A stretch of DNA of 20,000 bases from an uncultured virus (IMG/VR IMGVR_UViG_3300025128_000023) (Duplodnaviria; Heunggongvirae; Uroviricota; Caudoviricetes): IMG/VR virus record IMGVR_UViG_3300025128_000023. One strand, 5' to 3'. Both the position numbers and the translations under genes were made by a program. Shown one piece after another: positions 961 through 15,181 of this stretch. The notes under the pieces are model-generated. The model saw only the letters and a list, made by a program, of their open reading frames with translations. It had not been told where the DNA came from and ran no database searches. Position 1 is the stretch's first letter. Each line of letters starts with the position of its first letter.

Positions 961-963
961 ATT

Positions 964-1326: not shown

Positions 1327-1327
1327 A

Positions 1328-2560
1328 CTACAAAGTTAATAAATCCTTTTTGAAGTGAGTTAGCGTGTAATCCTTCTTCTTAACTACTGCTTTGTATATC
1401 TGATCCTCAATGCCTCCCTTGGAAAAAATCCAATATACTTTATTATATAACCTATCCTTTGTAGTCATCCTATCTCGTGACTGCCAGTAACTCGTAGCAC
1501 TAAAGTCAATGTTATAATATACTAATGCTACTGCTTGTTTTAAACTTATACCTTCTCTTCCACTTACTATCTGTAAAGCAATGCTTTTGTCAGTGTTACA
1601 AAACTCTTCCAGTGTGTTACATATTGATTCACCAAACACATCTTTGATAGCTTCATACTCTGCAGTAAACTTATAGAAGATAGCAATCTTTTTATTTTTA
1701 AACATACTTTGTATAAACTTAGCTTTGGTTAAATCTAATACCATAGACTTACCACTCTCAAACTTTACAGTACCTGAATATAGTTGATGTGTTTTAGACA
1801 TCAGCTTCACTGCTGTGTCGGCTAACACCACCTGATCCTTACCTTCTATAACTCTATCAGTGCTAAGTCTTTTAATTATATTTCTTAAATCACTGGGCAC
1901 ATCAACATATAATATTTCCTCATTTGTTTGAACTTTGAATCCAGCTTCTTTCTGTGTATAAGATATAGTATATGGCTTCATCATATCTATAATAGATTGA
2001 AGTCCTTTACTGTAATCATTAATATAATTACCATTAATTTTTCTTTGTCGTACATCCACATATGTTTTAGCAAATGCATAGAAGTTATTAAACTTTCTAA
2101 AAGGATTGTTTCGTATTCCACACACTTGATGATACATCTGACTGTATGATTCAGGAGTAGGAGTGCCTGAAAGCAGTATGGTATATGGCTCATGAGACAG
2201 TAATATATCCATAATCTGTCTCGCCCTCTTACTTTTTTTAGGAAAAGCACCTAAAGTGTGTGCTTCATCACAAATTAATGCGTCCCATGAGACATCACTT
2301 GGAACTTTATGAAGACTCTCGTAGTTAATTACTAATAAATTATAAGTGTGGTTTAATTGTTGATAGTCATTCTCAATACTTGAGATAGCTTTTTTCTTAG
2401 TAACAAATAGACAGTTCGTGACTGGCAGAAGGCTCACCATACTCAAACTCGTAGCTGTCTTACCAGTACGAACCTCCATAGCAAGATACAAAAATTTATG
2501 ATCTTCTAATATAGGTAAACCTTTATTTACTATCTGTTGTTGGTAATCTCTTAGCTTCAA
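1328..2560 (-). CDS. SF2 (SNF2-like) DNA helicase
   Basis: LRDYQ, RTGKT (Walker A), DEAH, LSGTP, GREGISL, QSRDR motifs. Confidence 0.9.
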   Translation of the reverse strand: MKLRDYQQQIVNKGLPILEDHKFLYLAMEVRTGKTATSLSMVSLLPVTNCLFVTKKKAISSIENDYQQLNHTYNLLVINYESLHKVPSDVSWDALICDEAHTLGAFPKKSKRARQIMDILLSHEPYTILLSGTPTPESYSQMYHQVCGIRNNPFRKFNNFYAFAKTYVDVRQRKINGNYINDYSKGLQSIIDMMKPYTISYTQKEAGFKVQTNEEILYVDVPSDLRNIIKRLSTDRVIEGKDQVVLADTAVKLMSKTHQLYSGTVKFESGKSMVLDLTKAKFIQSMFKNKKIAIFYKFTAEYEAIKDVFGESICNTLEEFCNTDKSIALQIVSGREGISLKQAVALVYYNIDFSATSYWQSRDRMTTKDRLYNKVYWIFSKGGIEDQIYKAVVKKKDYTLTHFKKDLLTL

Positions 2561-3900
2561 AGTATATCTTTTAATTGTTGAACAACTGCATATACCACAT
2601 CTACTGTCACTGCATTACCACATGTCTTATATCTTTGAGTATTACTAACTGTTTTTATTTCTCCATTATAATCCCCCATTTTTGTCCAATCATCAGGAAA
2701 ACCCTGTAGTCTTTCACATTCAATAGGTGTTAATCTTCTTATTTTACCAGTAGTTTTCTCTAATTTTTTTAACATAGACAAATACTCTGAAGAAGATCCT
2801 CCTCTTCCTATTGCCCCAGTAAGTGTGCCACTTACTGATTCATCTACCTTTAAGTTGTCCATTTTATCTTGTTGATTATCATTTAATATGATTCCATTTG
2901 GCTCAGAAGAACGAATAGTAAAAGCATCATCCCCTTCTTGTTTGATAGCATTACCATAGTTTTTAGAATTACCTAATTGTGTAGGCACTACCACACTATC
3001 CAAGGGGTGTGTAGTTACTGCATTAGAAACATCATCTTCCCTAATTTCTAATCTCTTAGACCTATTATCTTCTTCTCCTTTAGGTTTTTGTCTTGGGTAA
3101 GTTCTTAGTGCTCCTGAAATAGCCAGTGGTGGCATAGTGCTAATATCTTTTTCACTATGTCTTCTTGCAGATAAACAAGGGCTTTCATCATCTTCTCTTA
3201 TTCTCAGACCTTCATCATTTCGATAGTCTGCCATCTTTACATAAGTATCAGAAGAGCCCATCTTCCAATACCTGGCAGTTATTGTTCGTGCAGATCGAGG
3301 TCTCCCACTTGAAAGTTCCCCTTCTTTGTCCCCTGTCGATCCATTAGGAACTGTGTCATCTTTTTGGATAGGAAAAATTCCTTTCCAATCTCTTGGGGGG
3401 TCTGCAGAATATCCGACAAGGTAGATTCTCTCTCTGTTTTGGGGTAAAAACCACGATGTATTACACAGTTGCCATTCAAGTCTATAGCCCCCAATGTCGG
3501 TAAAGGCTTGGAGGATTGCCGCAAAGTCTTCGCCAGAGTTTGAGGAGAAAGTTCCTTTAACATTTTCCCAGATAAAAACTCTTGGTCTGCATTCCCGAAT
3601 GAGCCTAATTGCTTCAAGGATAAGGCTTGATCTTTCGCCATCCATCCCCCTACGCTTTCCTGCCAAGCTAAAGTCTTGACAAGGGCTTCCAAAGGTGATA
3701 ACATCGATTTTTGGTAATTGTTCTCTTCGAACATCTGTAACTGATCCGACATATGTACTATTTTTAAAGTTATGTTTATATATTGCTATAGCATGTTGGT
3801 CTACCTCAGAAAAATAAGAGTCACATTCATAGCCAGCTCTTTCAAATCCAAGTTTAAAACCTCCAATACCTGAAAATAAATCTAATATATTTAATTTCAT
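2557..3900 (-). CDS. dcm: C5 DNA cytosine methyltransferase with long variable region
   Basis: DLFSGIGG (I), GSPCQDFS (IV), ENVKG (VI), PQNRERIY (VIII), RRLTPIECERLQGFPD (IX), YKTCGNAV (X). Confidence 0.95.
   Translation of the reverse strand: MKLNILDLFSGIGGFKLGFERAGYECDSYFSEVDQHAIAIYKHNFKNSTYVGSVTDVRREQLPKIDVITFGSPCQDFSLAGKRRGMDGERSSLILEAIRLIRECRPRVFIWENVKGTFSSNSGEDFAAILQAFTDIGGYRLEWQLCNTSWFLPQNRERIYLVGYSADPPRDWKGIFPIQKDDTVPNGSTGDKEGELSSGRPRSARTITARYWKMGSSDTYVKMADYRNDEGLRIREDDESPCLSARRHSEKDISTMPPLAISGALRTYPRQKPKGEEDNRSKRLEIREDDVSNAVTTHPLDSVVVPTQLGNSKNYGNAIKQEGDDAFTIRSSEPNGIILNDNQQDKMDNLKVDESVSGTLTGAIGRGGSSSEYLSMLKKLEKTTGKIRRLTPIECERLQGFPDDWTKMGDYNGEIKTVSNTQRYKTCGNAVTVDVVYAVVQQLKDIL
3279..3752 (-). 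CDS. nested alternative-frame ORF in dcm; candidate methyltransferase beta-type subunit
   Basis: 157 aa ATG-initiated ORF wholly inside dcm on the same strand; contains STLSDILQ...KEFFLSKK, resembling the LsdiLe...kyyLS segment of C5-MTases. Confidence 0.55.
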   Translation of the reverse strand: MSDQLQMFEENNYQKSMLSPLEALVKTLAWQESVGGWMAKDQALSLKQLGSFGNADQEFLSGKMLKELSPQTLAKTLRQSSKPLPTLGAIDLNGNCVIHRGFYPKTERESTLSDILQTPQEIGKEFFLSKKMTQFLMDRQGTKKGNFQVGDLDLHEQ

Positions 3901-3901
3901 A

Positions 3902-6310
3902 TTAAAATGGGAAGTCTGATTGTTCTTCCAGTTTATGTTTACTTATAAATCTAATCCATTTTCCTGGATTATCTCTTCCTTCTTGTGGTGCACATTCCCA
4001 TTTAAACTCTGCGAAAGCACACAACCATTTGTAGAATCTTCTACGAGGTACTGTCATCTTAGACTTTGGAGCAAAGTCAGGGTTCTCTTCTATAAAATCT
4101 AAATACAAATCATTCAGAAATATCTTGGTGTTTAACACCAACTTGTCGTTGACTGTACCACCTACAACACCACACCATTCAATAAACTCGTGGCATGTTT
4201 CGGCAGATAATTTTCTAACCTTCAAGTTAACAAAATCACTTTGGATTAATCCATACTGCAAGTAGAGTTGAAGACATTCAATCATAAACACATCGAACTG
4301 ACACCACTCCTCATCATCCCATTCACCAAACATCATCTTGCCAAACTCTTTTAATGGAGTAAAATCTTTCGTATAATACTGGGCTAATTCTAACTCCCAC
4401 TTTCTTCTTTCGAAGGATGAGCCTTTACCTTTGATAGCATAGTTAGTTGTAATAGCTACCTTTGGACTCTTGGCAAATGGTATCTTAATTGCATCTTTGT
4501 TTTTCTTTTCAAGAGTTAATCCTTCTGTAACTACAGAGAATAATCTTTCAAAGTTAAAGTGTTTGCTTACATCATCAAAGCATAGTATCTGTGTGTCTGC
4601 ACTAACTAACTGATATGCAAAGCTTCTTTCAAAGTTAAATGACTTACCATCAATTACGACTACCTTCTTCATCTGTGATATCCCATTCATAAATAAACCC
4701 TTACCAGTACCCCCTTCTGGATTGTCTGATATAACCTCATCATTTAAGATTGTAGCTGGGCAGTATGCTAAATTTTTATAAGCATGAAGTAGATATCCTA
4801 TTGTAGATTTCATCGATCTGACTCTACTTTCATCTTGACCACATATGTTTGTAATAAAGGTACGATAATCACAAGCCTGTACCTCACACTCTGTAAACAC
4901 TCTATCAATGACATGATCCTTCCATACATACCCCCCTATATCGAGGTAGTCTATGATGGTTAGAGCCTCATGCGAAATTTTTACAGCTCCATTTTTATAA
5001 TATAAATATGCAGTGTCTTTATCATCTTCTATAAAGTACACATCTATAGAACTAAGCAAGGTCAAGAACTCCTCTCGAAAATACCTGGTGTTCTCTGCAA
5101 AGTAATTATAAATAGATAAGTCATCCATCTCTTGTAGATATTCTAAAATAAAATCTTTGATTTCTTTTTCTGAGGTGTGGTCAATTAGATTGTTTGTTAC
5201 CCTTACAAATACATAGTTCTTACTACCTTCAGGATTAAATTTATAAAAGCCATTCTCCTCTAAGAAATGTTTAAATAATATGTGTACTATTTTTATAGTA
5301 CCCTTATCATTCTTAGTCCAAAACTTATGATTGGATTGTTCTTCCTCTATCCTATTGATTACATTGTCTATTGTAACTTCATCTATTTCCTTCTCTTTTA
5401 ATTGAGTTCTTATATCTTTTTTAGAGACACCTCTTTTTAGTTTATGTCTTATCTGATTTACTTTATCTTCATCTTCATAATACTTTTTGCCAAAGTTTTG
5501 TTGTTGAGCATATGCACTATCTATAGTTCTTTTAATTTCAGATCTGTCAAAGTTTCTTGACTCATATTGATTTAAAATATACTCTGCTAAGTTTTGATTA
5601 ATACCATAATCATTGAAAGCTGCAGCCAATACATATGTGTGATGGTTTCTTTGCCCTTCATTCATAGGATATTTTTTCTCCCACCACTTAACTAATATCT
5701 CTACAATTTTATTTTCATCAGTGACTGGTATCGTTGCTTTATCTACATGCTTAATATACTCAGTGTATTCCTCTTCTTCTATTCTATCCCAAGTGCTTGA
5801 TGTTTCATTTATAAATATAAGTGGATCATAAGATTCATAACACACCCTTGATATATTTTTACTGGTAGTGTCAAAGTTTGGAGACTTAAAATACTTTTCT
5901 AAACTTTTAAAATAATTAATATGTTGTTCAGGATCGGTAGGAATCTTCACTAATGCTTTTAAACCCTTACCACTGGGAGATATAAATACTGAGTAGATAT
6001 ATTTATTTTTTGTTAGTCTTTCTTTTTCCTGGAGCATGTCTCGATTTGCACCATACCCATCAAAGTCTAAGCAAATCAAACCACTGTGTTGATTTAGGGA
6101 GTTGTCATTTCGTTGAGTGAATGTTCCAGAAAAACATATAGATGGAAGGTTTTGTTTTAGTTTATTTCTTTGTTCCTTGTCCTTAGTGTTTCTTATCTTC
6201 TTAACTAATTCTTTGGAAGATCCATCTTTTATCCTTTGTAATATAACATCAACTGATCTGTAGAAAGGCTGACTGGTATCTTTTATATCCTTGAAGATAG
6301 TTATGTTCAT
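3902..6310 (-). CDS. primase-helicase (BT4734/VirE N-terminal-like + PriCT-like + P-loop NTPase)
   Basis: KQNLPSICFSGTF, HSGLICLDFD, FISPSGKGLKALV, SRVCYESYDP; EGQRNH (PriCT-like); GGTGKG Walker A, FDD Walker B. Confidence 0.85.
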   Translation of the reverse strand: MNITIFKDIKDTSQPFYRSVDVILQRIKDGSSKELVKKIRNTKDKEQRNKLKQNLPSICFSGTFTQRNDNSLNQHSGLICLDFDGYGANRDMLQEKERLTKNKYIYSVFISPSGKGLKALVKIPTDPEQHINYFKSLEKYFKSPNFDTTSKNISRVCYESYDPLIFINETSSTWDRIEEEEYTEYIKHVDKATIPVTDENKIVEILVKWWEKKYPMNEGQRNHHTYVLAAAFNDYGINQNLAEYILNQYESRNFDRSEIKRTIDSAYAQQQNFGKKYYEDEDKVNQIRHKLKRGVSKKDIRTQLKEKEIDEVTIDNVINRIEEEQSNHKFWTKNDKGTIKIVHILFKHFLEENGFYKFNPEGSKNYVFVRVTNNLIDHTSEKEIKDFILEYLQEMDDLSIYNYFAENTRYFREEFLTLLSSIDVYFIEDDKDTAYLYYKNGAVKISHEALTIIDYLDIGGYVWKDHVIDRVFTECEVQACDYRTFITNICGQDESRVRSMKSTIGYLLHAYKNLAYCPATILNDEVISDNPEGGTGKGLFMNGISQMKKVVVIDGKSFNFERSFAYQLVSADTQILCFDDVSKHFNFERLFSVVTEGLTLEKKNKDAIKIPFAKSPKVAITTNYAIKGKGSSFERRKWELELAQYYTKDFTPLKEFGKMMFGEWDDEEWCQFDVFMIECLQLYLQYGLIQSDFVNLKVRKLSAETCHEFIEWCGVVGGTVNDKLVLNTKIFLNDLYLDFIEENPDFAPKSKMTVPRRRFYKWLCAFAEFKWECAPQEGRDNPGKWIRFISKHKLEEQSDFPF

Positions 6311-6312
6311 TC

Positions 6313-6473
6313 TGTGTTGATTTAATTAAAGTTAATTTACTGACAATCAATACTTTATATTTATTTGTGTTGATTGTGTTGAAAATATGTTAAAAAATAT
6401 ATAGAATAAAAATATTAAAAAAATATTTATTCTGATGTGTGAAAAGTGAAATTTTTATAACACAATTAACACA
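6313..6473. repeat. origin-like element 1: inverted pairs of TGTGTT(G/A)A repeats around an AT-rich spacer, with an IHF-consensus site
   Basis: TGTGTTGATTGTGTTG (6366-6381) inverted to TAACACAATTAACACA (6458-6473); AATCAATACTTTA (6345-6357) matches WATCAANNNNTTR. Confidence 0.6.
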
Positions 6474-6479
6474 AGATGC

Positions 6480-6503
6480 AAAAAAAAGGGGAGATTACTC
6501 CCC
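6480..6503 (-). terminator. intrinsic terminator downstream of the SSB-like gene
   Basis: minus strand GGGGAG-TAAT-CTCCCC-TTTTTTTT. Confidence 0.85.
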
Positions 6504-6537
6504 AATTCATTGCACGCCTTTCGACTACCAAACAATC

Positions 6538-6813
6538 TTAAAATGGTAAGTCAGTTCGTGTGTCTGACTCTGCCACAGCTTGTGGTTGCTCTTTAGTCTC
6601 TCCTTGTGGTTTAGGTACAAATTGATCTAACTCCACATAAGGTTTACCTGAAGATGCAGTTAAAACATTTAGGTTAACCCAACCATTTCGAGCATTACTT
6701 TTAAGAAAAGGAATTGCATCCTCTACCTTAACACTTAAATTTCCGATTACAAAATCGGGAGCATTTTCTCTTCTCTTGAAGGAAAAGCCATCTGCAAAAA
6801 CTTTGTCTGCCAT
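6538..6813 (-). CDS. putative single-stranded DNA-binding protein
   Basis: Short beta-rich protein with a flexible tail ending TDLPF (SSB-type C-terminus), next to nuclease and annealase genes. Confidence 0.6.
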   Translation of the reverse strand: MADKVFADGFSFKRRENAPDFVIGNLSVKVEDAIPFLKSNARNGWVNLNVLTASSGKPYVELDQFVPKPQGETKEQPQAVAESDTRTDLPF

Positions 6814-6815
6814 AA

Positions 6816-7013
6816 TTATCTAATTTTAATATTACTCTCCAAGTGTTCAATAGTAGCCAGGATGATTTCATCCTTCTCTTGTCTACTTTCACAGATGCTT
6901 GGAGTTTCCATCTGTATTATCTTCTTTCCATAGATTCTCTGTTTTAAGTTAAGACATAACTTACAGAGTTTGTCTATGAATGTACGAATTAATATCATCG
7001 TTAGCCTCATCAC
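6816..7013 (-). CDS. small hypothetical protein; start uncertain (possibly ATG 6911)
   Basis: Fills the gap between nuclease and SSB-like genes. Confidence 0.35.
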   Translation of the reverse strand: MMRLTMILIRTFIDKLCKLCLNLKQRIYGKKIIQMETPSICESRQEKDEIILATIEHLESNIKIR

Positions 7014-7698
7014 TAAAAAATTTATTATATATTTCTGTTGCTTGTTCTACTTTTCGTTGCCCCGATCTGAGAAATTCAGAAGAGCAATCATATATACCTA
7101 ACCTGGTAGTGTTCTTACATATAACAAAGAACACCATTGGTTTACCAAACATTCTTTGATACAGATATGCTTGACTATCATAATTATAGGTCTTAGCCGA
7201 GTACATAAATTTATCGATGTCCGAGCTGGTCTTAATGTCAATAAGATATTCTGAATGTACGATATCAGCTTTACCTTTCCACCAATTACCCATAATTTGC
7301 TCTACTTGGGGCACTTCATATTCATTGCCCTCTGCATAAATAAAATCATACATCTCCAGGTTACCTTTCATCTTCTCGACCAGTGCATCGATGTGCTCTG
7401 CTTCGTGCCTTAACAAAAGTATGTCATCTTTTGGACACATTTCTTTGTAGGCTTTAGTCGATCTTGATGCAACATCTACGATTTGATAATCTTTAACTTT
7501 GTCAGGCTCAATCATACAAGCATGAAAGTAAGATCCTTGAATCATTGGCTTTGTCGTAAGTTGTGGTACTCTAAATTGTGTAGGATTTTTAAGTAGATAT
7601 ATTATGTCAGAGTTTGACAAATATTGTTTGCCATACTTACCATAATAAAACTCATCATTCTTTAGTTTGTCTAAGGCTTGTGCTATAGGCTCTATCAT
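6961..7698 (-). CDS. PD-(D/E)XK exonuclease (DUF3799/RecE-like)
   Basis: YLSNS, GSYFH..IEP, KGKADI...IDIKT, YDSQAYLY motifs. Confidence 0.85.
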   Translation of the reverse strand: MIEPIAQALDKLKNDEFYYGKYGKQYLSNSDIIYLLKNPTQFRVPQLTTKPMIQGSYFHACMIEPDKVKDYQIVDVASRSTKAYKEMCPKDDILLLRHEAEHIDALVEKMKGNLEMYDFIYAEGNEYEVPQVEQIMGNWWKGKADIVHSEYLIDIKTSSDIDKFMYSAKTYNYDSQAYLYQRMFGKPMVFFVICKNTTRLGIYDCSSEFLRSGQRKVEQATEIYNKFFSDEANDDINSYIHRQTL

Positions 7699-8288
7699 TA
7701 TTTCAAATGTTTACCGAGTTCCTTCTTTACCGTAGTAGTAACCTTATATTTAGTTGAAAGGTTTTTAACTATAGCACTCAGACCTAACTCTTTGTTAGCA
7801 ACAACATACTTCAATACCTTATCCCAGTTATCATCATCTACTTGTAACTCATAAGTTACATTCTTTGGTTGAGAGATTTTTTTCTCAGTAGCACTTATAA
7901 CATCTTCTCCAACCCATAAAGACAATCCTAATCCATGCATTGCCACTGCCTTAGCAGTAGACCTTTGAATAGCAGTGTTAACATCCATAGATGTAATCTT
8001 TTCTATTCTGATTGAATTGTTTCTGAAATCCATTATAGGTAGGTAATCGATATGCTCTATATCATTTATAGTAATACCGACTTTAACATAAGCAGTTCTG
8101 CCATCAGTAAAAAAGTTCAAGCCAGTAGCCTGATCCTCATAAACATTTCTTTGTGCATTGGGATATCTTAATTTAACGAATGCCCAAGCATTAGCCCAAG
8201 ATAAATAATCAAAGTTTCCTTTTTTCTCTACCTTATCTTTGATGTTGACTTTAGCCAACTCTTCAAAATAATTGTTTTGTTTTGCCAT
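7698..8288 (-). CDS. Sak/DUF1071-like single-strand annealing protein
   Basis: VEKKGNFDYLSWANAW, LPIMDFRN, DVNTAIQR..AKAVAMHGLGLSLW.GED. Confidence 0.85.
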   Translation of the reverse strand: MAKQNNYFEELAKVNIKDKVEKKGNFDYLSWANAWAFVKLRYPNAQRNVYEDQATGLNFFTDGRTAYVKVGITINDIEHIDYLPIMDFRNNSIRIEKITSMDVNTAIQRSTAKAVAMHGLGLSLWVGEDVISATEKKISQPKNVTYELQVDDDNWDKVLKYVVANKELGLSAIVKNLSTKYKVTTTVKKELGKHLK

Positions 8289-8294
8289 TTAATT

Positions 8295-8690
8295 TTAATT
8301 TAATTGATTTAACTTCTGTTTTAATTTAGTATACTTATTTAGTATATTTTCTCTTCTGTTTTTTAAGTTCTGTATATGCTTATCATTCTTCCTGGTGTTA
8401 ACCTCAGTCTTAATTTTATCTTCAATCAATCCCAACTTAAACAAGCAGTTTGATATGGATAAATTAACAGAGCCTCTTCTCCAACCACCATGATAGAAGA
8501 TATTATACTCATCTTCATCTAATATCTTATAGTAGTCTCCACCCTTATTCATATTGAGCATCTCAATCCTATCTCCAAATCTTTGCATCCTCACACCCGA
8601 TCCGATAATCAACTCTCCCTTTGGGACTTGTTGTAGGACCGCCGATGCATCCCCAAGTGCTTGTAACCATATCTCTTCTAAACTATACAC
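8295..8690 (-). CDS. hypothetical phage protein
   Basis: 131 aa ORF with coiled-coil-like C-terminus, overlapping the upstream gene. Confidence 0.7.
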   Translation of the reverse strand: MYSLEEIWLQALGDASAVLQQVPKGELIIGSGVRMQRFGDRIEMLNMNKGGDYYKILDEDEYNIFYHGGWRRGSVNLSISNCLFKLGLIEDKIKTEVNTRKNDKHIQNLKNRRENILNKYTKLKQKLNQLN

Positions 8691-8979
8691 TCTCTTTTAT
8701 TTTATTAACCAAGTGTTTGTAGTCAGGATCGTTGTCTATAAGTTTCTTTGCTCTTTCATATCCATGAAGGATAGAACTCATAGGAACATCATAGCCATGA
8801 TCCTCTAAATAAGACTTAATAAATGTAAGTCTAATTGGTCGTTCCATACATAGCAGATATAATATCTGTCGTGCATCAACTTGGTTTCTTCTTTTAGATT
8901 TTTCGAACAACTTGTCCATTTCTAAATGAAATGCCTTCGCTACAGCTTTAGCATACTTTTCGAATATTTCTCTTTTCAT
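8683..8979 (-). CDS. DnaA C-terminal-like HTH protein (divergent)
   Basis: KSKRRNQVDARQILYLLC...I..YL...SSILHGY resembles DnaA domain IV (SR...v.aRq.amyl...HstvihA). Confidence 0.6.
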   Translation of the reverse strand: MKREIFEKYAKAVAKAFHLEMDKLFEKSKRRNQVDARQILYLLCMERPIRLTFIKSYLEDHGYDVPMSSILHGYERAKKLIDNDPDYKHLVNKIKESV

Positions 8980-9305
8980 TTAAATTCTTTTAATTTTTCT
9001 CGTTTTGATTCTAATAACTTATCTTTAATTACTTGGTCCTCTTTTAATATTTGTACTTTAAGCAGAATTAAATATCCAATCAAATCTTTAAGTGTGTCCT
9101 CTGACTTCAAAGGATCATCAAAACCTAACTTCTTGATTCTACTTAACTTGTCATCTATTCGTGCCAAGATTCCTTCCTTAGCCGATAGCTTACTAAATAT
9201 TTGTGGAGGATGATTGGCAGTGTCTCCATAGTTCTTGTTCTTTTCTATAAGTAACATCACTACTTCTCTTCCCACTTCTTTTATAAAGTCTGCAGTATTT
9301 TTCAT
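8976..9305 (-). CDS. nucleotide-modification associated domain 1 (Nmad1/DUF1599-like) protein
   Basis: KNKNYGD...RIDDKLSRI...EDTLKDLIGY; start moved to ATG 9305, which forms an ATGA overlap with the upstream ORF. Confidence 0.75.
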   Translation of the reverse strand: MKNTADFIKEVGREVVMLLIEKNKNYGDTANHPPQIFSKLSAKEGILARIDDKLSRIKKLGFDDPLKSEDTLKDLIGYLILLKVQILKEDQVIKDKLLESKREKLKEFK

Positions 9306-9472
9306 TGTGTAAATAAAATTAGTAATAATGTTAAGACTAAACAAACAAAGGAGAAAGTAAACAACTTCATGTCTCTTGTATATCTCTGATCAGACTTGCC
9401 TTGTCTACTTCTAAATAGCCTTACTTTTTTTCTTTTCAGAATCTCCTTACCCTCATTTATATAATGTTTCAT
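9302..9472 (-). CDS. small membrane protein (56 aa)
   Basis: Manual ORF MKHYINEGKEILKRKKVRLFRSRQGKSDQRYTRDMKLFTFSFVCLVLTLLLILFTQ; ATGA overlaps at both ends; hydrophobic C-terminus. Confidence 0.65.
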   Translation of the reverse strand: MKHYINEGKEILKRKKVRLFRSRQGKSDQRYTRDMKLFTFSFVCLVLTLLLILFTQ

Positions 9473-9654
9473 TTTTTTGTTCTTAGCTTTTTAATAATTC
9501 TTATTGCTTGTTTCATTTTTTTGTCCAGGTGGTTTTCTAAAGCCTCTACCCTGTGCACTAAAAAATTGATACGATCTTCGTTGTAATTCATAGCTTCTTT
9601 AAGTTTTTTGTTTTCGTTATATATTTTATCTATACTACTCATCTTTAAATCCAT
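9469..9654 (-). CDS. hypothetical coiled-coil protein
   Basis: 61 aa ORF in the tightly packed operon. Confidence 0.6.
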   Translation of the reverse strand: MDLKMSSIDKIYNENKKLKEAMNYNEDRINFLVHRVEALENHLDKKMKQAIRIIKKLRTKK

Positions 9655-9826
9655 ATACTATCCAGGACTTATCAGTTTCGCCTATGGCATCACTGATCCA
9701 CCATTCATTATTTCTATTATTGAAATACTCAATCTCACTCATTAAGTGATCTTGCTCAAACTCTTTCGAGATAATTACTTTGCCACTGTCCTTGACAGAC
9801 CAAAGCTGTGTAAATAGGTCTTCCAT
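9635..9826 (-). CDS. hypothetical protein
   Basis: 63 aa acidic ORF; ATG overlaps the end of the hairpin motif. Confidence 0.6.
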   Translation of the reverse strand: MEDLFTQLWSVKDSGKVIISKEFEQDHLMSEIEYFNNRNNEWWISDAIGETDKSWIVYGFKDE

Positions 9827-9869
9827 CTACCACCACAAGCCCACACCTTTTGAGTGTGAGCTGGGCAGT
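9826..9869 (-). ncRNA. unrecognised structured RNA motif, copy 2
   Basis: ACUGCC-C-AGCUCACACU-CAAAA-GGUGUGGGCU-UGU-GGUGGU-AGA; same architecture as 13646-13691. Confidence 0.55.
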
Positions 9870-9908
9870 TCTAAACTAACTAATTATAACACTTGATCCA
9901 TAAGTAGA

Positions 9909-10055
9909 CTAAATAAAGTAGTGTGGATCATCACTATCTTTATCGCTTTTATATTCTTTAATAGGAAAAAGGTCTGACAGAAATTTGTCAAAGACTTTCT
10001 CTTGGTACTTTATCAAGTTAGCTTGATTGTTCTTACTTTGTTTTGATTTAACCAT
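9909..10055 (-). CDS. small hypothetical protein (48 aa)
   Basis: Manual ORF MVKSKQSKNNQANLIKYQEKVFDKFLSDLFPIKEYKSDKDSDDPHYFI, with an A-rich leader downstream of a promoter. Confidence 0.55.
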   Translation of the reverse strand: MVKSKQSKNNQANLIKYQEKVFDKFLSDLFPIKEYKSDKDSDDPHYFI

Positions 10056-10083
10056 AGATTTAATTTTAATTATAACACACTTG

Positions 10084-10115
10084 CAAATAAAAGGAATTTC
10101 TAAATCAATTCCAAA
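10084..10115 (-). promoter_or_regulatory. Bacteroidota sigma70-type promoter
   Basis: minus strand TTTG-N20-TTTATTTG, one mismatch to TTTG-N19-21-TAnnTTTG. Confidence 0.55.
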
Positions 10116-10301
10116 TTATTTCTTTTTAAATTTTATTATTTCAAAATTTTTAGCCCCAAAGGGTGCTTGTTGTTCTGCTTTTTGAATGGCTTGTCGAGGA
10201 CTTATTGCCTCGACTTCCACTCTATCGTAATCGTAGCCACAATCTTCATCTCCATGAAAATGCAGAAACCAATACTCAACTATATATTCCTTTATTGGCA
10301 T
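10116..10301 (-). CDS. hypothetical protein
   Basis: 61 aa ORF, overlaps the upstream gene end. Confidence 0.65.
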   Translation of the reverse strand: MPIKEYIVEYWFLHFHGDEDCGYDYDRVEVEAISPRQAIQKAEQQAPFGAKNFEIIKFKKK

Positions 10302-10690
10302 AATCCAGTCCCCCTTGTTATTCCAGTTTGAACAAACTCCATAACCTCTATCTCATTGTGCTCTATATTGATTGTGCCCATATCATCAAACTCTTCTCCC
10401 CTCCATCTCACACGACCAGTGATTGAAAGGTTGTTGGGTTTGAAGAAATACTTTATTAAGTATTCTAACCAATCGATGTAGCTATAAAACTTCTCGCCCC
10501 CATCCCATATTAAATAATGAGTGTCGGCATATTCTTCTACAATCCATTGTAGCCATATTGAAGGCTTTCCATTTGGTTGATAACCATCTTCGTGCCTTGT
10601 TTCATAAAGAGTGTTCATTGCTTTTAACTCTTTCTTTGTCAGTTTACGATTAAATTCAAACTGACCATCAAATTCTGTTGTATATCCCAT
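10292..10690 (-). CDS. phage protein of unknown function
   Basis: 132 aa, Trp/Gly-rich: MGYTTEFDG...WLQW...WDGGEKFYSYIDWLEYLI...WRGEE. Confidence 0.75.
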   Translation of the reverse strand: MGYTTEFDGQFEFNRKLTKKELKAMNTLYETRHEDGYQPNGKPSIWLQWIVEEYADTHYLIWDGGEKFYSYIDWLEYLIKYFFKPNNLSITGRVRWRGEEFDDMGTINIEHNEIEVMEFVQTGITRGTGLCQ

Positions 10691-10692
10691 AA

Positions 10693-11085
10693 TTATAAAT
10701 TTTTATATTGTTTTAATTGATTATTAACTGAGTCCAGGAGATAGGTTGTTACCTCCGATTGCAGATCTGCAACATAGTCCCAAAAGTATTCAAGATGGTT
10801 GTCCAGATCCTCTACAGCTTTAAGACTAAGATTAGGATCATGCTCTCGGATGTCTCCTAAAATTCTCATCACATAAGTATTTAATTCATTTTGAAGAAAA
10901 TCTATTGGCTTCTTGTCATAGTTATGCAAGTGTGTCCACTCTATATTAAAGGTCAACAAACTTTCGTAGTCTTCCTTTTCTCTATATGAGTTGTGGTCTT
11001 CTAACCACTTATCGACATCATTTGTTACTCCTACTATATACTCTCTCCCAGTGGATTCAGTATATTTAATTATTGCTATTTTCAT
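10693..11085 (-). CDS. hypothetical acidic protein
   Basis: 130 aa ORF with A-rich leader. Confidence 0.7.
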   Translation of the reverse strand: MKIAIIKYTESTGREYIVGVTNDVDKWLEDHNSYREKEDYESLLTFNIEWTHLHNYDKKPIDFLQNELNTYVMRILGDIREHDPNLSLKAVEDLDNHLEYFWDYVADLQSEVTTYLLDSVNNQLKQYKNL

Positions 11086-11096
11086 ATTAATTTAAA

Positions 11097-11312
11097 TTAA
11101 TTTTTAATTATTTCAGTTACCTCTTCAATCTCCAAGTCTAACTCACTTGCCACATAATTAATGTGCTTTTGAGTTGTTTGAGACCAGTAGCCCAGTTGAT
11201 AAAGTTTGTTATTAACTCCATCAATCTGAGCCACTCTCGTTGAATAAGAGTAGATGTCATCACCTACTCTTGTCAAGTTCGCTTTGTATTTGTCAAATTT
11301 TTCTATTGCCAT
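11097..11312 (-). CDS. small phage protein of unknown function
   Basis: 71 aa; YSYSTRVA...WSQTTQKHIN pattern. Confidence 0.7.
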   Translation of the reverse strand: MAIEKFDKYKANLTRVGDDIYSYSTRVAQIDGVNNKLYQLGYWSQTTQKHINYVASELDLEIEEVTEIIKN

Positions 11313-11322
11313 ATCCTTTAAT

Positions 11323-11451
11323 TTAAATTGTTATACCTAAAAAGAATACTGCATAAGACATATACACAATGCCAAAGCATGCTAATGTTCCCAAGATCCA
11401 AGCTACTCCCATAAAGAAGTAGTGTGTAATAATACTGATTTGATTTTTCAT
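11323..11451 (-). CDS. small membrane protein (42 aa)
   Basis: Manual ORF MKNQISIITHYFFMGVAWILGTLACFGIVYMSYAVFFLGITI; starts 24 nt after the predicted HH-C cut. Confidence 0.6.
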   Translation of the reverse strand: MKNQISIITHYFFMGVAWILGTLACFGIVYMSYAVFFLGITI

Positions 11452-11470
11452 AAATTTAATTTTTAATTAT

Positions 11471-11547
11471 ACATTGACTTTCATTTGAAGGGGAGGCAAC
11501 CTCCCCCATTTAAGTTTCGCCTTGCTCTCAAAGGCTCATCAGAATGT
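11471..11547 (-). ncRNA. type I hammerhead ribozyme (HH-C)
   Basis: ACAUU-CUGAUGA-GCCUU(UGAGAGC)AAGGC-GAA-ACUU[AAAUGGGGGAGGUUGCCUCCCCUUCAAAUGA]AAGU-C^AAUGU; intact core and GUC site, cut between 11476 and 11475. Confidence 0.9.
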
Positions 11548-11549
11548 TT

Positions 11550-11693
11550 CTAATCGTAAAATTTGTGACCTTGATTCTCGTGCCAACTATTAAAGGCATT
11601 TGGATATTCTCTCATCACATAGTTGTGAAGGTCCATCAACTCCTCGATTTCTTGTATCAATTCTTTTTTACTCATCTTTTTATAGTAATTCAT
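11550..11693 (-). CDS. small hypothetical protein (47 aa)
   Basis: Manual ORF MNYYKKMSKKELIQEIEELMDLHNYVMREYPNAFNSWHENQGHKFYD; stop 2 nt before HH-C. Confidence 0.6.
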   Translation of the reverse strand: MNYYKKMSKKELIQEIEELMDLHNYVMREYPNAFNSWHENQGHKFYD

Positions 11694-11703
11694 ATTTATA
11701 GTT

Positions 11704-11928
11704 TTAAAATAATTCTTCTTGTGTTTTTTCCCACTTATCTATCTCAGATCTGATCTGAGATTCTTGATCAAGAATATCTTTACAATATTCTATCAAGTCT
11801 TTTAGTGATTCTATTTCACTATCGGAGGTTGTTTCATAGTCTATGAAGTCTCCATCAAGAATTGCATTTGCACAATCCTCTAAATCCATTGCAGTATTTT
11901 CAAATCTGCAGTAACTCATATTTGCCAT
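11704..11928 (-). CDS. small acidic phage protein
   Basis: MANMSYCRFENT..DL.DC N-terminus, very D/E rich. Confidence 0.7.
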   Translation of the reverse strand: MANMSYCRFENTAMDLEDCANAILDGDFIDYETTSDSEIESLKDLIEYCKDILDQESQIRSEIDKWEKTQEELF

Positions 11929-11929
11929 A

Positions 11930-12592
11930 TTATTTATTTATTAAATTGATTATTTTTTCACTTGCTAACATTACCTCCTCACATAGTTGTGAAGGGATTT
12001 TGCTTTTGTCATAATAGGATTTGATTCCTTGTGTTCCAGTCTGTGAGCCTCTTGGTGCACTTTGGTGGCAAGAGTCTCCATTCTTACACATTGGTTTACT
12101 TACCCATAATGGATTGTTATTCCATATGTCAGTTGGTTTCATTCTTGTATCTCCATACTGACAATAGGTAACTCCATTTAGTTTCCAAGCCTTATTGAAA
12201 TGGTTTTCCCATTTAGGATATTTTCTCATTTTTCCACGAGGGTTCTCCACATACCAAACAAGGTTTGGATTCAAGGTCTGAAAATGTTTTATGATTTCAA
12301 GAGTCTTCTCTAACATTGCAACACCTTTCTTTGCATTGTCTGTTTTAGGTGTGAAGACTTCTCCCTTTACCCAATGCCTTCCAATACTTGCCACACTAAA
12401 TGATTCACAAGGTGGAGATGCCCAAATCATATTTGGAATAAAAGGCACTTTGTTCACATCAAACTCCATTATGTCAACTACATAATTGGTGTTTGGAAAA
12501 TCATTGAAGTCGGAGGAGAACACATTATGTCCTCTCTCCTCTCCAATTTTGCCGATGCTTCGGCTACCACTAAATAATTCTAATACATTCAT
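11930..12592 (-). CDS. short C5-cytosine methyltransferase-like protein
   Basis: LELFSG (I), WASPPC (IV), VENP (VI), YCQYG...KPTDIW; no long TRD. Confidence 0.8.
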   Translation of the reverse strand: MNVLELFSGSRSIGKIGEERGHNVFSSDFNDFPNTNYVVDIMEFDVNKVPFIPNMIWASPPCESFSVASIGRHWVKGEVFTPKTDNAKKGVAMLEKTLEIIKHFQTLNPNLVWYVENPRGKMRKYPKWENHFNKAWKLNGVTYCQYGDTRMKPTDIWNNNPLWVSKPMCKNGDSCHQSAPRGSQTGTQGIKSYYDKSKIPSQLCEEVMLASEKIINLINK

Positions 12593-12595
12593 AGT

Positions 12596-12925
12596 TTATT
12601 GGTTTATCATATCAACTTTTATTTTGAACTGAGATATAAGTAAATGTTCTATCTCATCATATTTATTATTGAAGAAATCTTGTGCCTCTTCAGTATAGTT
12701 ATATGATTGTTCAGATTCATTCCACACTGATTCTTTGTGGTTAAATTTCTCGGCAGTTATTTCTGATGTTATATCACAAACAACTTGCAAGAAAATAGAG
12801 TTAGGAATTATTTGACAATTAAAATATAATTCCATTGTGTCAAGAAATTCTTGCTTATTGATTTTATCATTATCATACTCATCAAGTAGATTATGAAATG
12901 TTAATAAATTAAATTTTTCAATCAT
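12596..12925 (-). CDS. hypothetical acidic protein
   Basis: 109 aa ORF starting 27 nt after the predicted HH-B cut. Confidence 0.7.
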   Translation of the reverse strand: MIEKFNLLTFHNLLDEYDNDKINKQEFLDTMELYFNCQIIPNSIFLQVVCDITSEITAEKFNHKESVWNESEQSYNYTEEAQDFFNNKYDEIEHLLISQFKIKVDMINQ

Positions 12926-12945
12926 TTTTTTTAATTTTTAAGTTT

Positions 12946-13012
12946 AGACATTGACACCTCCAAAAGATCCTATGGAGGTGTTTCGGACTATGAGTCCATC
13001 ATCAGAATGCCT
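12946..13012 (-). ncRNA. type I hammerhead ribozyme (HH-B)
   Basis: AGGCAUU-CUGAUGA-U-GGACU(CAU)AGUCC-GAA-ACACCUCCA(UAGGAUCUUU)UGGAGGUGU-C^AAUGUCU; cut between 12953 and 12952. Confidence 0.92.
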
Positions 13013-13611
13013 CAAATTACATAGATGATGTCTCCTTTATTTGTCTTATAGTTATAGTGTAGCATTGCCCCTCCATCATTTCCTTCATCATCCATTTGAG
13101 GAATTAAACAAGTCTTGTTGTCTAACTCTAATACAAGTGGACTATAATTCCAACCCATATTGCCACATTCAGAGGGTTGAAGATATCTAACTTTAGTTAT
13201 CTTTCTACCTACTAAATGAGCCCATTTGTTTTCGTGCATTTCTCTTGTTCTTTTTGCCTCTATTTTATTTCTCAATTCTTCGGTAAGTACAGACATATCA
13301 ACATCAGATTCTCTCCTTCTTCTTGTCTGCTCATCTCTTTGGTTTCTTGCCTCTCTTCTTTTCTTTAACCAACCTTTTCTATTGGCAACAAATAACCTTC
13401 CTTCATCAGTCATAGAATACAATCCTTTGTCTTCTCTTTGGATTAGATTTTGGCTTACCCACTCTTGAAGAGCATCGGCATAATAGCCTTGTCTAACCAC
13501 ATATGTTTCCAGTTTATTACCTTGTGCAATCCAAATTTGTTTTTGGATATCTTGTCTTGTGAAAGTCCCCTCAACTTTTGAGAGTGCTTTAATTACTTTT
13601 GTTTTTATCAT
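13012..13611 (-). CDS. hypothetical two-domain protein (possible N-terminal winged helix)
   Basis: N-terminal ...LIQREDKGLYSMTDEG (wing-like), charged linker, C-terminal LVGRKITKVRYL...DDEGNDGGA. Confidence 0.7.
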   Translation of the reverse strand: MIKTKVIKALSKVEGTFTRQDIQKQIWIAQGNKLETYVVRQGYYADALQEWVSQNLIQREDKGLYSMTDEGRLFVANRKGWLKKRREARNQRDEQTRRRRESDVDMSVLTEELRNKIEAKRTREMHENKWAHLVGRKITKVRYLQPSECGNMGWNYSPLVLELDNKTCLIPQMDDEGNDGGAMLHYNYKTNKGDIIYVI

Positions 13612-13645
13612 AATTATTTATTTAGTGTTAAAATTAATTTCGTTT

Positions 13646-13691
13646 TCTACCACCAAAACCCCACTATTTTCATAGTGAGGCATTAGGAGGT
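13646..13691 (-). ncRNA. unrecognised structured RNA motif, copy 1
   Basis: ACCUCC-UAAU-GCCUCACUAU-GAAA-AUAGUGGGGU-UUU-GGUGGU-AGA. Confidence 0.55.
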
Positions 13692-13700
13692 TTTTGAGGT

Positions 13701-14033
13701 TTATATCTCTTCATTATACATCCAATCACAATACATTGTTTTCGGAGGTTTATTCATATGTTTTGATGTTTGCAATCCATCTTGAAAGCCCTTTTCCCAC
13801 TCCACAATATTATAGTTATGTGCAGAGTCATTTCCTTGTTCAATCTCATTTAAATAATATTGTTCTTCCTTTGAACTGGCTTCAATGTTTTCATCAATTC
13901 TTTTGTTTTGTGCCTCTAAGATGAAGTTATAAAAGCCCATAGCCATAATAAATTCCTCTTCATCTTGGTTGTTTCTTTCTTCTACTTTAGCATAATATTG
14001 CTCCCATAGTAAGTTGAAATCTAAATCTTTCAT
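13701..14033 (-). CDS. hypothetical acidic protein
   Basis: 110 aa ORF starting 26 nt after the predicted HH-A cut. Confidence 0.7.
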   Translation of the reverse strand: MKDLDFNLLWEQYYAKVEERNNQDEEEFIMAMGFYNFILEAQNKRIDENIEASSKEEQYYLNEIEQGNDSAHNYNIVEWEKGFQDGLQTSKHMNKPPKTMYCDWMYNEEI

Positions 14034-14053
14034 TTTAATTGTTTTTTAGTGTT

Positions 14054-14115
14054 AAATCTGACACCGAAAAAATCGGTGTTTCGTAGGTGTTTAAACCTTT
14101 ACTCATCGGAGATTT
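14054..14115 (-). ncRNA. type I hammerhead ribozyme with U4C core variant (HH-A)
   Basis: AAAUCU-CCGAUGA-GU(AA)AGGU(UUAAAC)ACCUAC-GAA-ACACCGA(UUUUU)UCGGUGU-C^AGAUUU; cut between 14060 and 14059. Confidence 0.8.
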
Positions 14116-14116
14116 T

Positions 14117-14605
14117 TTAACTTCTTTCAATTATTTCATCCTCGACTTCTTTTATTAGTTCTTCGGTTATTCTTTGCCCTCTAAAATCACAGATGGCTTT
14201 GAGATTATACATCAATTCTTGCCCTCTCCAATATGCATAATGATTTACTAATTTTTCGGCATTGTCAAAGGTGTTGTTTATCTCTCCAAAGTTTTCTTTT
14301 TCTTGCTCTTGGCAATATGTAATTAAATCGAATGTATTTAGATTATTTTCTTTTATAAATTGCTCGGCTTGATAATAGCCAATAATAAAATAATCTTCAT
14401 TAAATAAATGATGGTGCAAGTCATCAAAATATTGCCCCTCATAATTTTCGATATTATCGGCAATATGATTAATTAAATCTAAGTCGGCTTCTTGTGTGTG
14501 TGCATTCATATTAATTGTTGTTTGTGTTGGTTCTACTTTTGGAAATCTTTTTGCTATATATTTTTTTAGCTCTTCCCCTTTTAATTCTGTTGTTAAATTA
14601 CTCAT
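14117..14605 (-). CDS. acidic early protein, possibly Ocr-like antirestriction / DNA mimic
   Basis: First sizeable gene of the operon; acidic; DDLHHHLFNEDYFIIGYYQA...ENFGE...EKLVNHYAY, loosely resembling Ocr (DDLH). Confidence 0.45.
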   Translation of the reverse strand: MSNLTTELKGEELKKYIAKRFPKVEPTQTTINMNAHTQEADLDLINHIADNIENYEGQYFDDLHHHLFNEDYFIIGYYQAEQFIKENNLNTFDLITYCQEQEKENFGEINNTFDNAEKLVNHYAYWRGQELMYNLKAICDFRGQRITEELIKEVEDEIIERS

Positions 14606-14607
14606 AG

Positions 14608-14697
14608 TTATAAATTTAAATTGTTAATAAAGTTTTCTAATTCTTGGCAGTTATTTTGAATGGTTGCAAGTTCCATTTCATAAGATAAATTTTTCAT
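14608..14697 (-). CDS. small leader ORF (29 aa)
   Basis: Manual ORF MKNLSYEMELATIQNNCQELENFINNLNL, directly after the promoter. Confidence 0.45.
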   Translation of the reverse strand: MKNLSYEMELATIQNNCQELENFINNLNL

Positions 14698-14739
14698 AAT
14701 GTGTTATAATTAAGTTTTAATTAATTTCTATTTCTGTTC

Positions 14740-14747
14740 CAAAACTA
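14740..14747 (-). promoter_or_regulatory. Bacteroidota -7 element of the putative early promoter
   Basis: TAGTTTTG on the minus strand, exact TAnnTTTG, upstream of the first minus-strand ORF; no clear -33 TTTG. Confidence 0.55.
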
Positions 14748-14849
14748 TGAATAACAATCGGAATAAAAAAATTTATTTCTATTTTATTTCTAAATTAATT
14801 TATAAGTGATTGAGTTACAGCTGTTTATGTCATCAAAAATAGATCTAAA

Positions 14850-15150
14850 ATGGGGTTAATTTGTTTGGGTTTTGTGGGTGTCGGTGTGGGGTTAAGAGAT
14901 TCCTCTCTGTGTTTGTGTGGGGTGTAAGTGGGGGAAGGTGGGAGAATGGGGGAAGGTTAGCCGATAATGAGAGGGAAGGAGAGCAACAACAAGAGCAGAC
15001 AAGAGGAGAAGGGAGGAGAGGCAAGGAGGAGGAGGGCAAAAGTTGAAAAAGTTGCAGAAAAAATTTTAAATAGTCGAGGGGGTAGGCAAAAAAAATCGGT
15101 TTTCGATTGGGGGGGTGGCGACTGTAAACCCATATATAACCCTCAACCCC
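14850..15150 (+). other. G/purine-rich non-coding strand-switch region with a G-quadruplex motif (14919-14952)
   Basis: GGGG-TGTAAGT-GGGGG-AAGGT-GGG-AGAAT-GGGGG; long A/G tract at about 14970-15060. Confidence 0.55.
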
Positions 15151-15181
15151 TATGTATCTGAACACATAAAAATATTTTTAG

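Follow-up and report, generated by a model that had tools for sequence, protein, structure and literature searches.

The DNA analysed here is a stretch of 20,000 nucleotides (nt) from an uncultured virus of the Caudoviricetes (IMG/VR record IMGVR_UViG_3300025128_000023), and the whole of this stretch is referred to below as the window. It is an AT-rich phage segment with a GC content of 32.8%. A minus-strand operon runs from approximately 14.7 kb down to position 1. Its products include small orphan open reading frames (ORFs), DNA methyltransferases, a Sak-type annealing protein, an exonuclease and a primase/helicase, and a GroEL-like gene is divergent to this early operon. The best cultured relatives of the primase are phages infecting Flavobacteriia, and the DNA runs that contain the window sequence are labelled as marine metagenomes. 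The gene leaders are A/U-rich, without Shine-Dalgarno sites. A Pfam search gave no match among the early ORFs, and a megablast of positions 9000–15000 against phages also gave none. Two of the spacers between the genes of this operon carry the same hairpin-containing motif (copy A and copy B), which is the subject of this analysis. As described below, this motif is a widespread and uncatalogued signal of phage early operons.

An initial annotation, made from the sequence alone, had placed the two copies on the minus strand at 9826–9869 (copy A) and 13646–13691 (copy B), with an identical 3′ end, UGGUGGUAGA, and both are found exactly there. Each copy has a basal helix (P1), an upper hairpin (HP1), a linker and a core, GGUGGUAGA, as listed in Table 1. 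HP1 is 24–25 nt long in both copies. Its base has CUCAC paired with GUGGG, including a U-G wobble common to the two, and the next outer pair is swapped from G-C to C-G, all of which agrees with the initial description of the upper stem. The closing wobble pair is followed in both by a 3-nt U-rich linker. The basal stem with GGUGGU, proposed for both copies, is complete only in copy A, since copy B has a U.U mismatch; an additional ACCUC lies near copy B at 13700–13696.

The exact 10-mer TGGTGGTAGA occurs at only two sites in the window, which are copies A and B. If up to one mismatch is allowed there are 6 matches where 0.81 would be expected, and none of 200 shuffles reaches 6. The minimum free energies of the two copies are −22.1 and −21.0 kcal/mol (z = −3.8 and −4.7), and again none of 200 shuffles is as good. 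The next ATG after copy B is at 13611, 34 nt 3′ of the core. In copy A the final A of the core is also the A of the ATG of a 63-residue ORF (9635–9826, minus strand), for which no family match was found. This ORF may not be a real gene, because in a related locus (L080) the motif lies directly 5′ of a homologue of the next gene (9469–9654 in the window).

Table 1. Positions of the two motif copies, the hammerhead-like motifs and a canonical terminator in the window. R1 is the covariance model described in the text.
Feature	Position	Strand	Details
Copy A, 5′ strand of P1, ACUGCC	9864..9869	minus	Fully complementary to GGUGGU, with two G-U pairs
Copy A, HP1	9838..9862	minus	Fold; R1 52.9 bits
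Copy A, linker UGU (9837–9835) and core GGUGGUAGA (9834–9826)	9826..9837	minus	
Copy B, 5′ strand of P1, ACCUCC	13686..13691	minus	Pairs with GGUGGU, one U.U mismatch
Copy B, HP1 (10 base pairs, GAAA tetraloop, U-G wobble at fourth pair)	13658..13681	minus	Fold; R1 61.3 bits
Copy B, U-rich linker UUU (13657–13655) and invariant core GGUGGUAGA (13654–13646)	13646..13657	minus	
HH-A, hammerhead-like	12947..13011	minus	CUGAUGA, GAAA, GUC and three stems, by eye
HH-B, hammerhead-like, core variant CCGAUGAG	14055..14118	minus	RAGATH-1-hammerhead, 21.7 bits (cut-off 56.3)
Third hammerhead-like motif of the operon	11509..11574	minus	Hammerhead_3, 27.7 bits (cut-off 48.5)
Canonical intrinsic terminator (GC hairpin and 8 U)	6488..6503	minus	3′ of both copies, 5′ of the primase/helicase gene

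The motif was compared with Rfam 15, using the whole window at E ≤ 1 and the copies alone at E ≤ 10. No family reached its gathering score, in a comparison that took in the hammerhead, twister, pistol, hatchet, hairpin, HDV-like, RAGATH, T-box and Flavo-1 families, and the best scores (13.8–19.5 bits) were to unrelated small RNA and microRNA models, far under their cut-offs. A literature search for the core sequence returned unrelated primers only. A T-box-like pairing of UGGN with the CCA of tRNA, a tRNA-like fold, and HDV-like and hairpin-ribozyme layouts were also tried by eye, and were rejected because the order of the elements does not fit and Rfam finds nothing.

A strict pattern scan of IMG/VR gave 10 further loci, two of which are identical, GC-rich and doubtful. 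A covariance model, R1, was built from 10 sequences. Its matches in the window are the two copies only. Elsewhere it finds two copies in each of five contigs that have a full-length homologue of the 199-residue gene beside copy B, one or two in four related phage contigs, and three and two in two others. When 80 loci anchored on the primase were searched at E ≤ 1e-3, 10 had a match, and all the strong matches were co-oriented with the genes. A looser pattern, limited to the linker, the core and the final three bases of the hairpin, is present in at least 119 IMG/VR stretches, and an 18-letter pattern in at least 122 stretches from genome contigs of bacteria and archaea, with a single match per locus; many of the matches in both sets are chance matches inside genes. 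Only those in which a hairpin ends 1–5 nt 5′ of the core, and in which each of the three frames contains stop codons, were kept, which left at least 53 intergenic instances with at least 50 distinct hairpins from IMG/VR and the genome contigs. Many of these are related by descent, so that the counts are not of independent events, and retrieval by pattern biases the core and the last hairpin bases.

The initial annotation did not recognise the motif as a named family, and suggested a covariance-model search as the check. A match to a known Rfam family, or a lack of further covarying homologues, was named as grounds for giving it up. What is found is the reverse on both counts, with no family above its cut-off and many covarying homologues retrieved. 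The family merits a covariance model and an Rfam entry of its own.

The carriers are diverse. They include phages of the Flavobacteriia type, phage-like contigs from bins of Saprospiraceae and others, a Mucilaginibacter contig with an integrated element, and proviruses of 40–49 kb from Clostridia (Ruminococcaceae/Oscillospiraceae bins). The Bacteroidota-type carrier phages use no Shine-Dalgarno sites, whereas the genes of the Clostridia proviruses do have them. In two of these proviruses (L414 and L415) the genes on either side of the motif are an Amidoligase_2 gene and one resembling gamma-glutamyl cyclotransferase, and the latter has a homologue in the early operon of a related phage (G006). 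The sole clearly non-phage setting seen is a chromosomal locus of the curli type (L418, Saprospiraceae bin, contig C65), which also has CsgE nearby. Here copies at 6065–6112 and 8177–8219 (minus strand) lie between tandem curlin-repeat genes and one core reads GGTAGTAGA. No motif was found in six cultured or named phages (MW202828, elemoE, Leef_1, Panino, phi46:1 and BT-TP2; best score 12.7 bits). Of 401 Bacteroidota genomes, 46 contain a 14-mer of the motif, with no more than two occurrences in any of them, which is about as often as the reversed control. A CRISPR repeat mimic (an RNA anti-CRISPR) was considered and rejected, as no array in the 401 genomes or in the genome-contig scan carries the sequence.

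The 199-residue protein beside copy B (ORF 13012–13611, minus strand) has an arginine-rich stretch, KKRREARNQRDEQTRRRRES, which recalls arginine-rich RNA-binding peptides. Full-length homologues, with 37–38% identity, are found only in the five contigs noted above (L011–L015, 3001–3561). There they directly adjoin a motif copy, but on the opposite side from that seen in the window. The widespread portion of the protein is its C-terminal part only (residues ~133–185).

Across the family the layout is constant. From 5′ to 3′ there is a C-rich strand, a GC-rich covarying hairpin that usually has a tetraloop, a 4-nt U-rich linker, the near-invariant GGUGGUAGA(AAC), and a start codon. In 54 distinct HP1 sequences, aligned by fitting to the model and with part of the 3′ arm fixed by the search pattern, 92.5% of cells are paired compared to 72.8% in column shuffles, none of 500 of which reaches the observed value. 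Both sides change in 8 of the 10 pairs, and slid controls are at most 56.7% paired. The loops are mostly GNRA (GAAA or GAGA) or UUCG. C predominates in the 5′ arm and G in the 3′ arm (497 C-G pairs against 149 G-C). Among 110 candidates with strong hairpins, the sense strand gives the better fold in 77 and the antisense strand in 33, and these candidates contain 143 G-U or U-G pairs against 14 single A.C or C.A mismatches. The initial reading of the motif as strand-specific is supported; together with the folding bias, the G-U excess implies that pairing is selected on the sense strand, whether in the RNA or in the non-template DNA.

The last G/C pair of HP1 is separated from the core by 4 nt, which are U-rich, in the cases read by eye (without a tally). 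In sets chosen independently of the core pattern the core has the consensus GGTGGTAGA, and AAC often comes next. The variants seen are GGTGGTACA, GGTGGTAAA, GGTGGTATA, GGTGGTAGT/G, GGTGGTGA, CGTGGTAGA, GGAGGTATA, GGCGGTAGA and the GGTAGTAGA of the curli-type locus. Variation is mainly at positions 1, 3, 8 and 9, while positions 2, 5 and 6 are unchanged in all variants seen; position 4 is altered once (GGTAGTAGA), and the GGTGGTGA form alone has a change at position 7. The conserved block begins directly 3′ of the hairpin and spans about 12–16 nt, which is the size of a transcription bubble.

The 5′ partner strand, by contrast, varies in both sequence and register (ACUGCC, ACCUCC, CCACC, CACCAA, CUACCAC, CUGCGA). 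The P1 pairing was judged by an energy test against composition-matched shuffles. Pairing of the 5′ strand with the linker and core has a mean free energy difference of −8.35 kcal/mol, compared to −5.98 kcal/mol in the shuffles; no more than 5% of shuffles are as good in 13 of 50 instances (2.5 expected), and no more than 20% in 30 of 50. In two cases a change in the core is matched by a change in the 5′ strand (CGUGG with CUGCGA, and GGAGG with ACCUC). A second hairpin 3′ of the core is present in part of the family only.

This pattern of conservation bears on the suggestion that the motif is a new and very small class of self-cleaving ribozyme, which would be used interchangeably with hammerheads to cut the early polycistronic RNA. 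The core is short, is conserved across phyla and matches no known family, and the motif occurs together with hammerheads in several unrelated phage lineages, with one case (described below) in which one takes the place of the other. However, all the conserved nucleotides belong to a single strand of a helix, and the strand opposite pairs with it in varying registers. A comparison of the copies found no conserved bases in a junction, in the hairpin loop or in the 5′ internal loop, and no pseudoknot or multi-helix junction, and the second hairpin occurs in some copies only. Judged on its sequence, the motif would be very unlikely to be catalytic, and this is the least supported of the three functions put forward in the initial annotation (a nuclease processing site, an antitermination or protein-binding element, and a catalytic motif).

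The motif lies entirely in untranslated spacer. The upstream stop codon ends mostly 16–30 nt before HP1, and the next ATG is −1 to 73 nt from the core in 46 of 50 instances, most commonly 20–37 nt. A Shine-Dalgarno sequence, either free or sequestered, was rejected on three grounds: the distance from the core to the ATG is too great, the phage has no such sites, and the Clostridia-type copies have a separate GGA/GGAG of their own nearer the ATG. Pairing with the 3′ tail of 16S ribosomal RNA, examined by eye only, was also rejected, since core variants at positions 3 and 4 break it.

The distance to the ATG could be that of a promoter acting at the DNA level, either a hairpin promoter for a virion or phage RNA polymerase, as in phage N4, or a promoter of the host; transcription would then begin at the core or immediately 3′ of it. 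It would fit that in two loci (L086 and L087) a terminator lies just upstream, that a second hairpin, which would be 5′-terminal, follows in some copies, and that relatives of the window encode giant proteins of 2755–2899 residues without a Pfam polymerase domain, the one tested (from G005) having no PHROGs or PDB match. Several observations speak against it. The same core is found in the Clostridia proviruses and in the chromosomal curli operon, and there is no Bacteroidota −7 box at a fixed spacing downstream. TAnnTTTG boxes are found 36–75 nt 5′ of the hairpin in 7 of 50 instances, which places the motif inside the transcript, in 5′ leaders. The excess of G-U pairs suggests that it is the sense strand that pairs, and the ATG of copy A overlaps the core. 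A promoter is thus highly improbable. A Bacteroidota sigma-A promoter (TTTG at −33, TAnnTTTG at −7) was considered separately and rejected, as there is no TAnnTTTG at a constant distance after the TTTG of the linker. The giant proteins are at 29012–37279 in G003, 35437–43968 in G004, 3407–12106 in G005 and 266–8596 in G006. The only Pfam match of the G005 protein is a methyltransferase domain, and G005 also encodes a crAss-type muzzle-protein domain.

The early operon of the window also contains three hammerhead-like motifs (Table 1). HH-A is in the junction 3′ of the gene that follows copy B, and starts directly after the stop codon of that gene (ORF 13012–13611); HH-B is in the junction 5′ of the gene upstream of copy B. 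Three consecutive junctions had initially been read as ribozyme, motif, ribozyme. The order of the ribozyme-like elements is correct, but the flanking hammerheads are either below the Rfam threshold (HH-B) or not reported by Rfam at E ≤ 1 (HH-A). In place of the CCGAUGAG of HH-B, the homologous hammerheads of relatives with the same stem II (L086 ~4039, L084 ~190, L398 ~14734) have CUGAUGAG, and the U-to-C change in the core may weaken or inactivate the copy in the window.

Hammerhead-like motifs share operons with the motif in the window, G003, G004, G010, L084 and L086, and outnumber it, with 3–6 per operon (up to 5–6 in L084). Pairs of homologous junctions are motif/motif in 5 cases, hammerhead/hammerhead in 1, motif/hammerhead in 1, motif/none in 18 and hammerhead/none in 13, which implies that both elements come and go. 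In the motif/hammerhead pair, the junction is that 5′ of a methyltransferase gene (78% identity), where G003 has the motif and L084 a hammerhead.

The common slot in these six operons and the swap before the methyltransferase gene are what would be expected if the motif were a site for a host endonuclease that separates cistrons, either an RNase III-type enzyme cutting the helix formed by P1, the internal loop and HP1, or an RNase E/G/Y-type enzyme cutting the single-stranded linker and core beside the hairpin. The early mRNA of T7 is processed by RNase III. P1 and HP1 together provide 16–20 base pairs with an internal loop, wholly in untranslated spacer and about 20 nt after the stop codon. 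On the other hand, RNase III has no need of 12 conserved nucleotides on one strand, and would not preserve them there while the opposite strand changes both its sequence and its register, and RNase E and RNase Y differ between Bacteroidota and Clostridia, where the core is identical. Moreover, the motif copies are few and promoter-proximal, compared to 3–6 hammerheads per operon. We therefore regard an endonuclease site as unlikely.

In five operons, those of the window and of G003–G006 (three complete contigs and one partial), the copies of the motif are on the sense strand, 0.4–5.6 kb from the start of the early/replication operon, with one or two per genome; a further genome, G009, has three. 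Canonical terminators were found in eight of the nine operons scanned, and in 7 of the 8 at least one motif copy comes before the first of them, while in the ninth (G010) no canonical terminator was found. The canonical terminators of the same genomes have 6–8 U's, and in L086 and L087 one of them is approximately 35 nt 5′ of the motif.

These terminators are relevant to a further possibility, namely that the motif is an ordinary constitutive intrinsic terminator that also stabilises the 3′ end, and that it travels on a mobile regulatory cassette similar to the promoter/stem-loop (PeSL) cassettes of T4-type phages, with the GGUGGUAGA tail kept mainly by common descent. A GC-rich tetraloop hairpin followed by U's would suit such a function. 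Mobility would explain why near-identical 40-nt copies adjoin unrelated genes in different genomes (winB, L005, L007, L011 and L086), and why presence at homologous junctions so often varies, as in the 18 motif/none pairs. Two identical copies flank a single 83-residue ORF, the last of them at the operon end, and there are arrays in L419, L420 and L422. But the same genomes already use canonical terminators with longer U runs, in two cases shortly 5′ of the motif, and descent alone fails to explain 50 divergent hairpins followed by a fixed 12 nt across phyla. The cassette is accordingly quite unlikely. A recombination site of the integron attC or REP type is loosely similar in architecture, and was rejected because there is no shared recombinase and the copy number is low.

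From the anatomy of the motif, its conservation pattern, covariation and strand specificity, and the positions and number of its copies, we infer pausing, termination and possibly a factor that acts there. Specifically we hypothesise, by analogy and with a probability of roughly 40%, that the motif is a hairpin-dependent pause/termination checkpoint for RNA polymerase, built like the opsX sites of Bacteroides. The basis of this proposal is that a fixed block directly follows a variable hairpin, with a partner strand that is free to change as long as it still pairs. The nascent GC-rich HP1 would form in the RNA exit channel. The polymerase would at that moment be on the invariant block, where the four U-rich nucleotides and GGUGGUAGA would provide the downstream fork as well as the RNA–DNA hybrid and the non-template strand left exposed. 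A pause and partial termination would then result from the combined effect of the hairpin, the weakness of the U-rich hybrid, the G-G ... U|G arrangement and a GGTAG segment that resembles ops. The C-rich strand 5′ of HP1 could pair with the newly made UUGGUGG RNA and so lengthen the hairpin, and the extended hairpin would act like the 'escape duplex' of opsX, causing either release of the transcript or a forward push of the polymerase. One to three such checkpoints near the start of an early operon would set the level of transcription reaching the downstream replication genes, and the site is a possible loading place for an elongation or antitermination factor.

A mechanism at the level of the polymerase would work in any host, and this fits the spread of the motif over Bacteroidota-type phages and Clostridia proviruses. 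Among the functions put forward initially, antitermination, or recognition by a protein or by the polymerase, fits best, given the bubble-sized block, the variable partner and the one to three copies at operon starts.

A number of observations weigh against the checkpoint proposal. A terminator scan of the window, which required at least 5 T in 8 after a GC-rich hairpin, called 20 terminator-like sites, and neither copy is among them; the U run is only 3–4 nt, the initial annotation having been right that there is no long U tract. Some copies look more like plain terminators than loading sites. These are the 3–5 copies within 2.8 kb in L422, and the one copy in L421, which is at the 3′ end of an operon and convergent with an integrase gene. 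The replacement of the motif by a hammerhead at one junction hints at a shared RNA-processing role. No NusG-family gene (PF02357) was found in five phage records, four of them complete, where the same search detected the family in 11 of 14 genomes used as a control. No protein is common to all the carriers compared, so that no candidate for a sequence-specific loading factor was found among them; in the two Clostridia proviruses (motif regions of about 10 kb) no ORF has a homologue in every Flavobacteriia-type set compared. Finally, the similarity to ops is a post hoc observation, and the G-C and C-G pairs of the ops stem are not retained in the common form of the core. A stronger version of the proposal, in which the motif is a universal 'ops-like' site recruiting the housekeeping NusG or NusA in phages of different phyla, appears rather doubtful.

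It is worth adding some observations on the surroundings of the early operons. Between the early operon of the window and the GroEL-like gene there is a long C/T-rich low-complexity tract (~14860–15160, with runs of the CCTCC/CTCTC type on the minus strand), which may be a promoter or origin region, or a repeat. Relatives that have the primase without the motif (L130, L134, L135, L138, L146 and L156) carry another recurrent intergenic element, consisting of a long hairpin and then GGTGGTGTC-TTYAAA-GACAC, which forms its own hairpin of 10 base pairs with a downstream ACUACCC. Three related phages have tRNA genes in or beside the early region (L398 15732–15806, L404 8178–8251 and L416 4184–4257).

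The known signals for control of elongation (ops, nut, put and opsX) come from few model systems. We found no catalogued pause or termination element that is defined by sequence and common to phages of different phyla, either in Rfam or in the literature on the core sequence, ops, UpxY and RAGATH. If the motif is a polymerase checkpoint, it would provide a compact and portable part for the control of read-through in Bacteroidota, where few expression tools exist, as well as a marker for the early operons of uncultured phages and a way to test whether signals acting at the level of the polymerase can spread horizontally. If it is self-cleaving or directs a host nuclease, it would instead be a new element among those that 'punctuate' phage operons gene by gene, of which hammerheads are at present the main known kind.

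The motif can be compared with several known systems. Hammerhead ribozymes occur between phage genes, and RAGATH candidate RNAs were found near hammerheads. The motif is found in the same intercistronic slots of the same operons as phage hammerheads and directly replaces one of them. It differs from hammerheads and RAGATH RNAs in that it has no hammerhead core and no Rfam ribozyme or RAGATH match, occurs in fewer copies, and has its conserved bases outside junctions. The RNase III processing sites of T7 consist of an upper stem, an internal loop and a lower stem, and lie between early genes; in the motif only one strand is conserved, and the lower stem is short and variable.

Intrinsic terminators resemble the motif in having a GC-rich hairpin with a stable tetraloop and U's, in lying just after a stop codon, and in acting, as the motif would, on any bacterial polymerase. 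The motif has only 3–4 U's, always followed by the invariant GGUGGUAGA, and coexists with canonical terminators in the same operons. The nut sites of lambda and the put sites of HK022 are antitermination sites, present at 1–3 per genome between early promoters and terminators. Like the motif, they combine a hairpin with a GNRA-type loop and a conserved linear element, but the order of the elements and the sequences differ, the motif lacks the boxA consensus, and no N-like protein was identified.

The closest comparison is with ops, which has a consensus of 12 nt, and with opsX. The opsX sites of B. fragilis, which serve the specialised NusG paralogues UpxY, are about 40 nt long and have a nascent pause hairpin reaching −12 to −9. 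Their exposed non-template element is YGCGNAGCR, where the ops of E. coli, which serves RfaH, is GCGGTAGC; an optional extension of the hairpin (the 'escape duplex') drives escape, and the start codon is approximately 41 nt downstream (PMC11685472). Compared with these sites, the motif does not keep the GCG/AGC stem of the non-template hairpin, and it is intercistronic as well as in leaders, with several per operon and the same core across phyla, whereas opsX is locus-specific. The core GTGGTAGA agrees with E. coli ops at 6 of 8 positions, with G-GTAG in common and the outer G-C pair missing. With this sequence, and with no NusG paralogue in the five phage records, membership of ops/opsX by sequence or by a cognate paralogue was rejected. 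A natural variant in L417, GCGGTAGA, agrees at 7 of 8 positions. What the motif does have in common with the ops and opsX sites is the architecture: directly 3′ of a hairpin, which in the motif would be a putative pause hairpin, there is a conserved block of some 12 nt that would be exposed as non-template DNA. As in opsX, upstream RNA can extend the hairpin, the start codon is a few tens of nucleotides 3′, and the site is promoter-proximal in a long operon. The spacing from hairpin to core, and the ATG at 20–37 nt, are compatible with the geometry of the hairpin and start codon in opsX.

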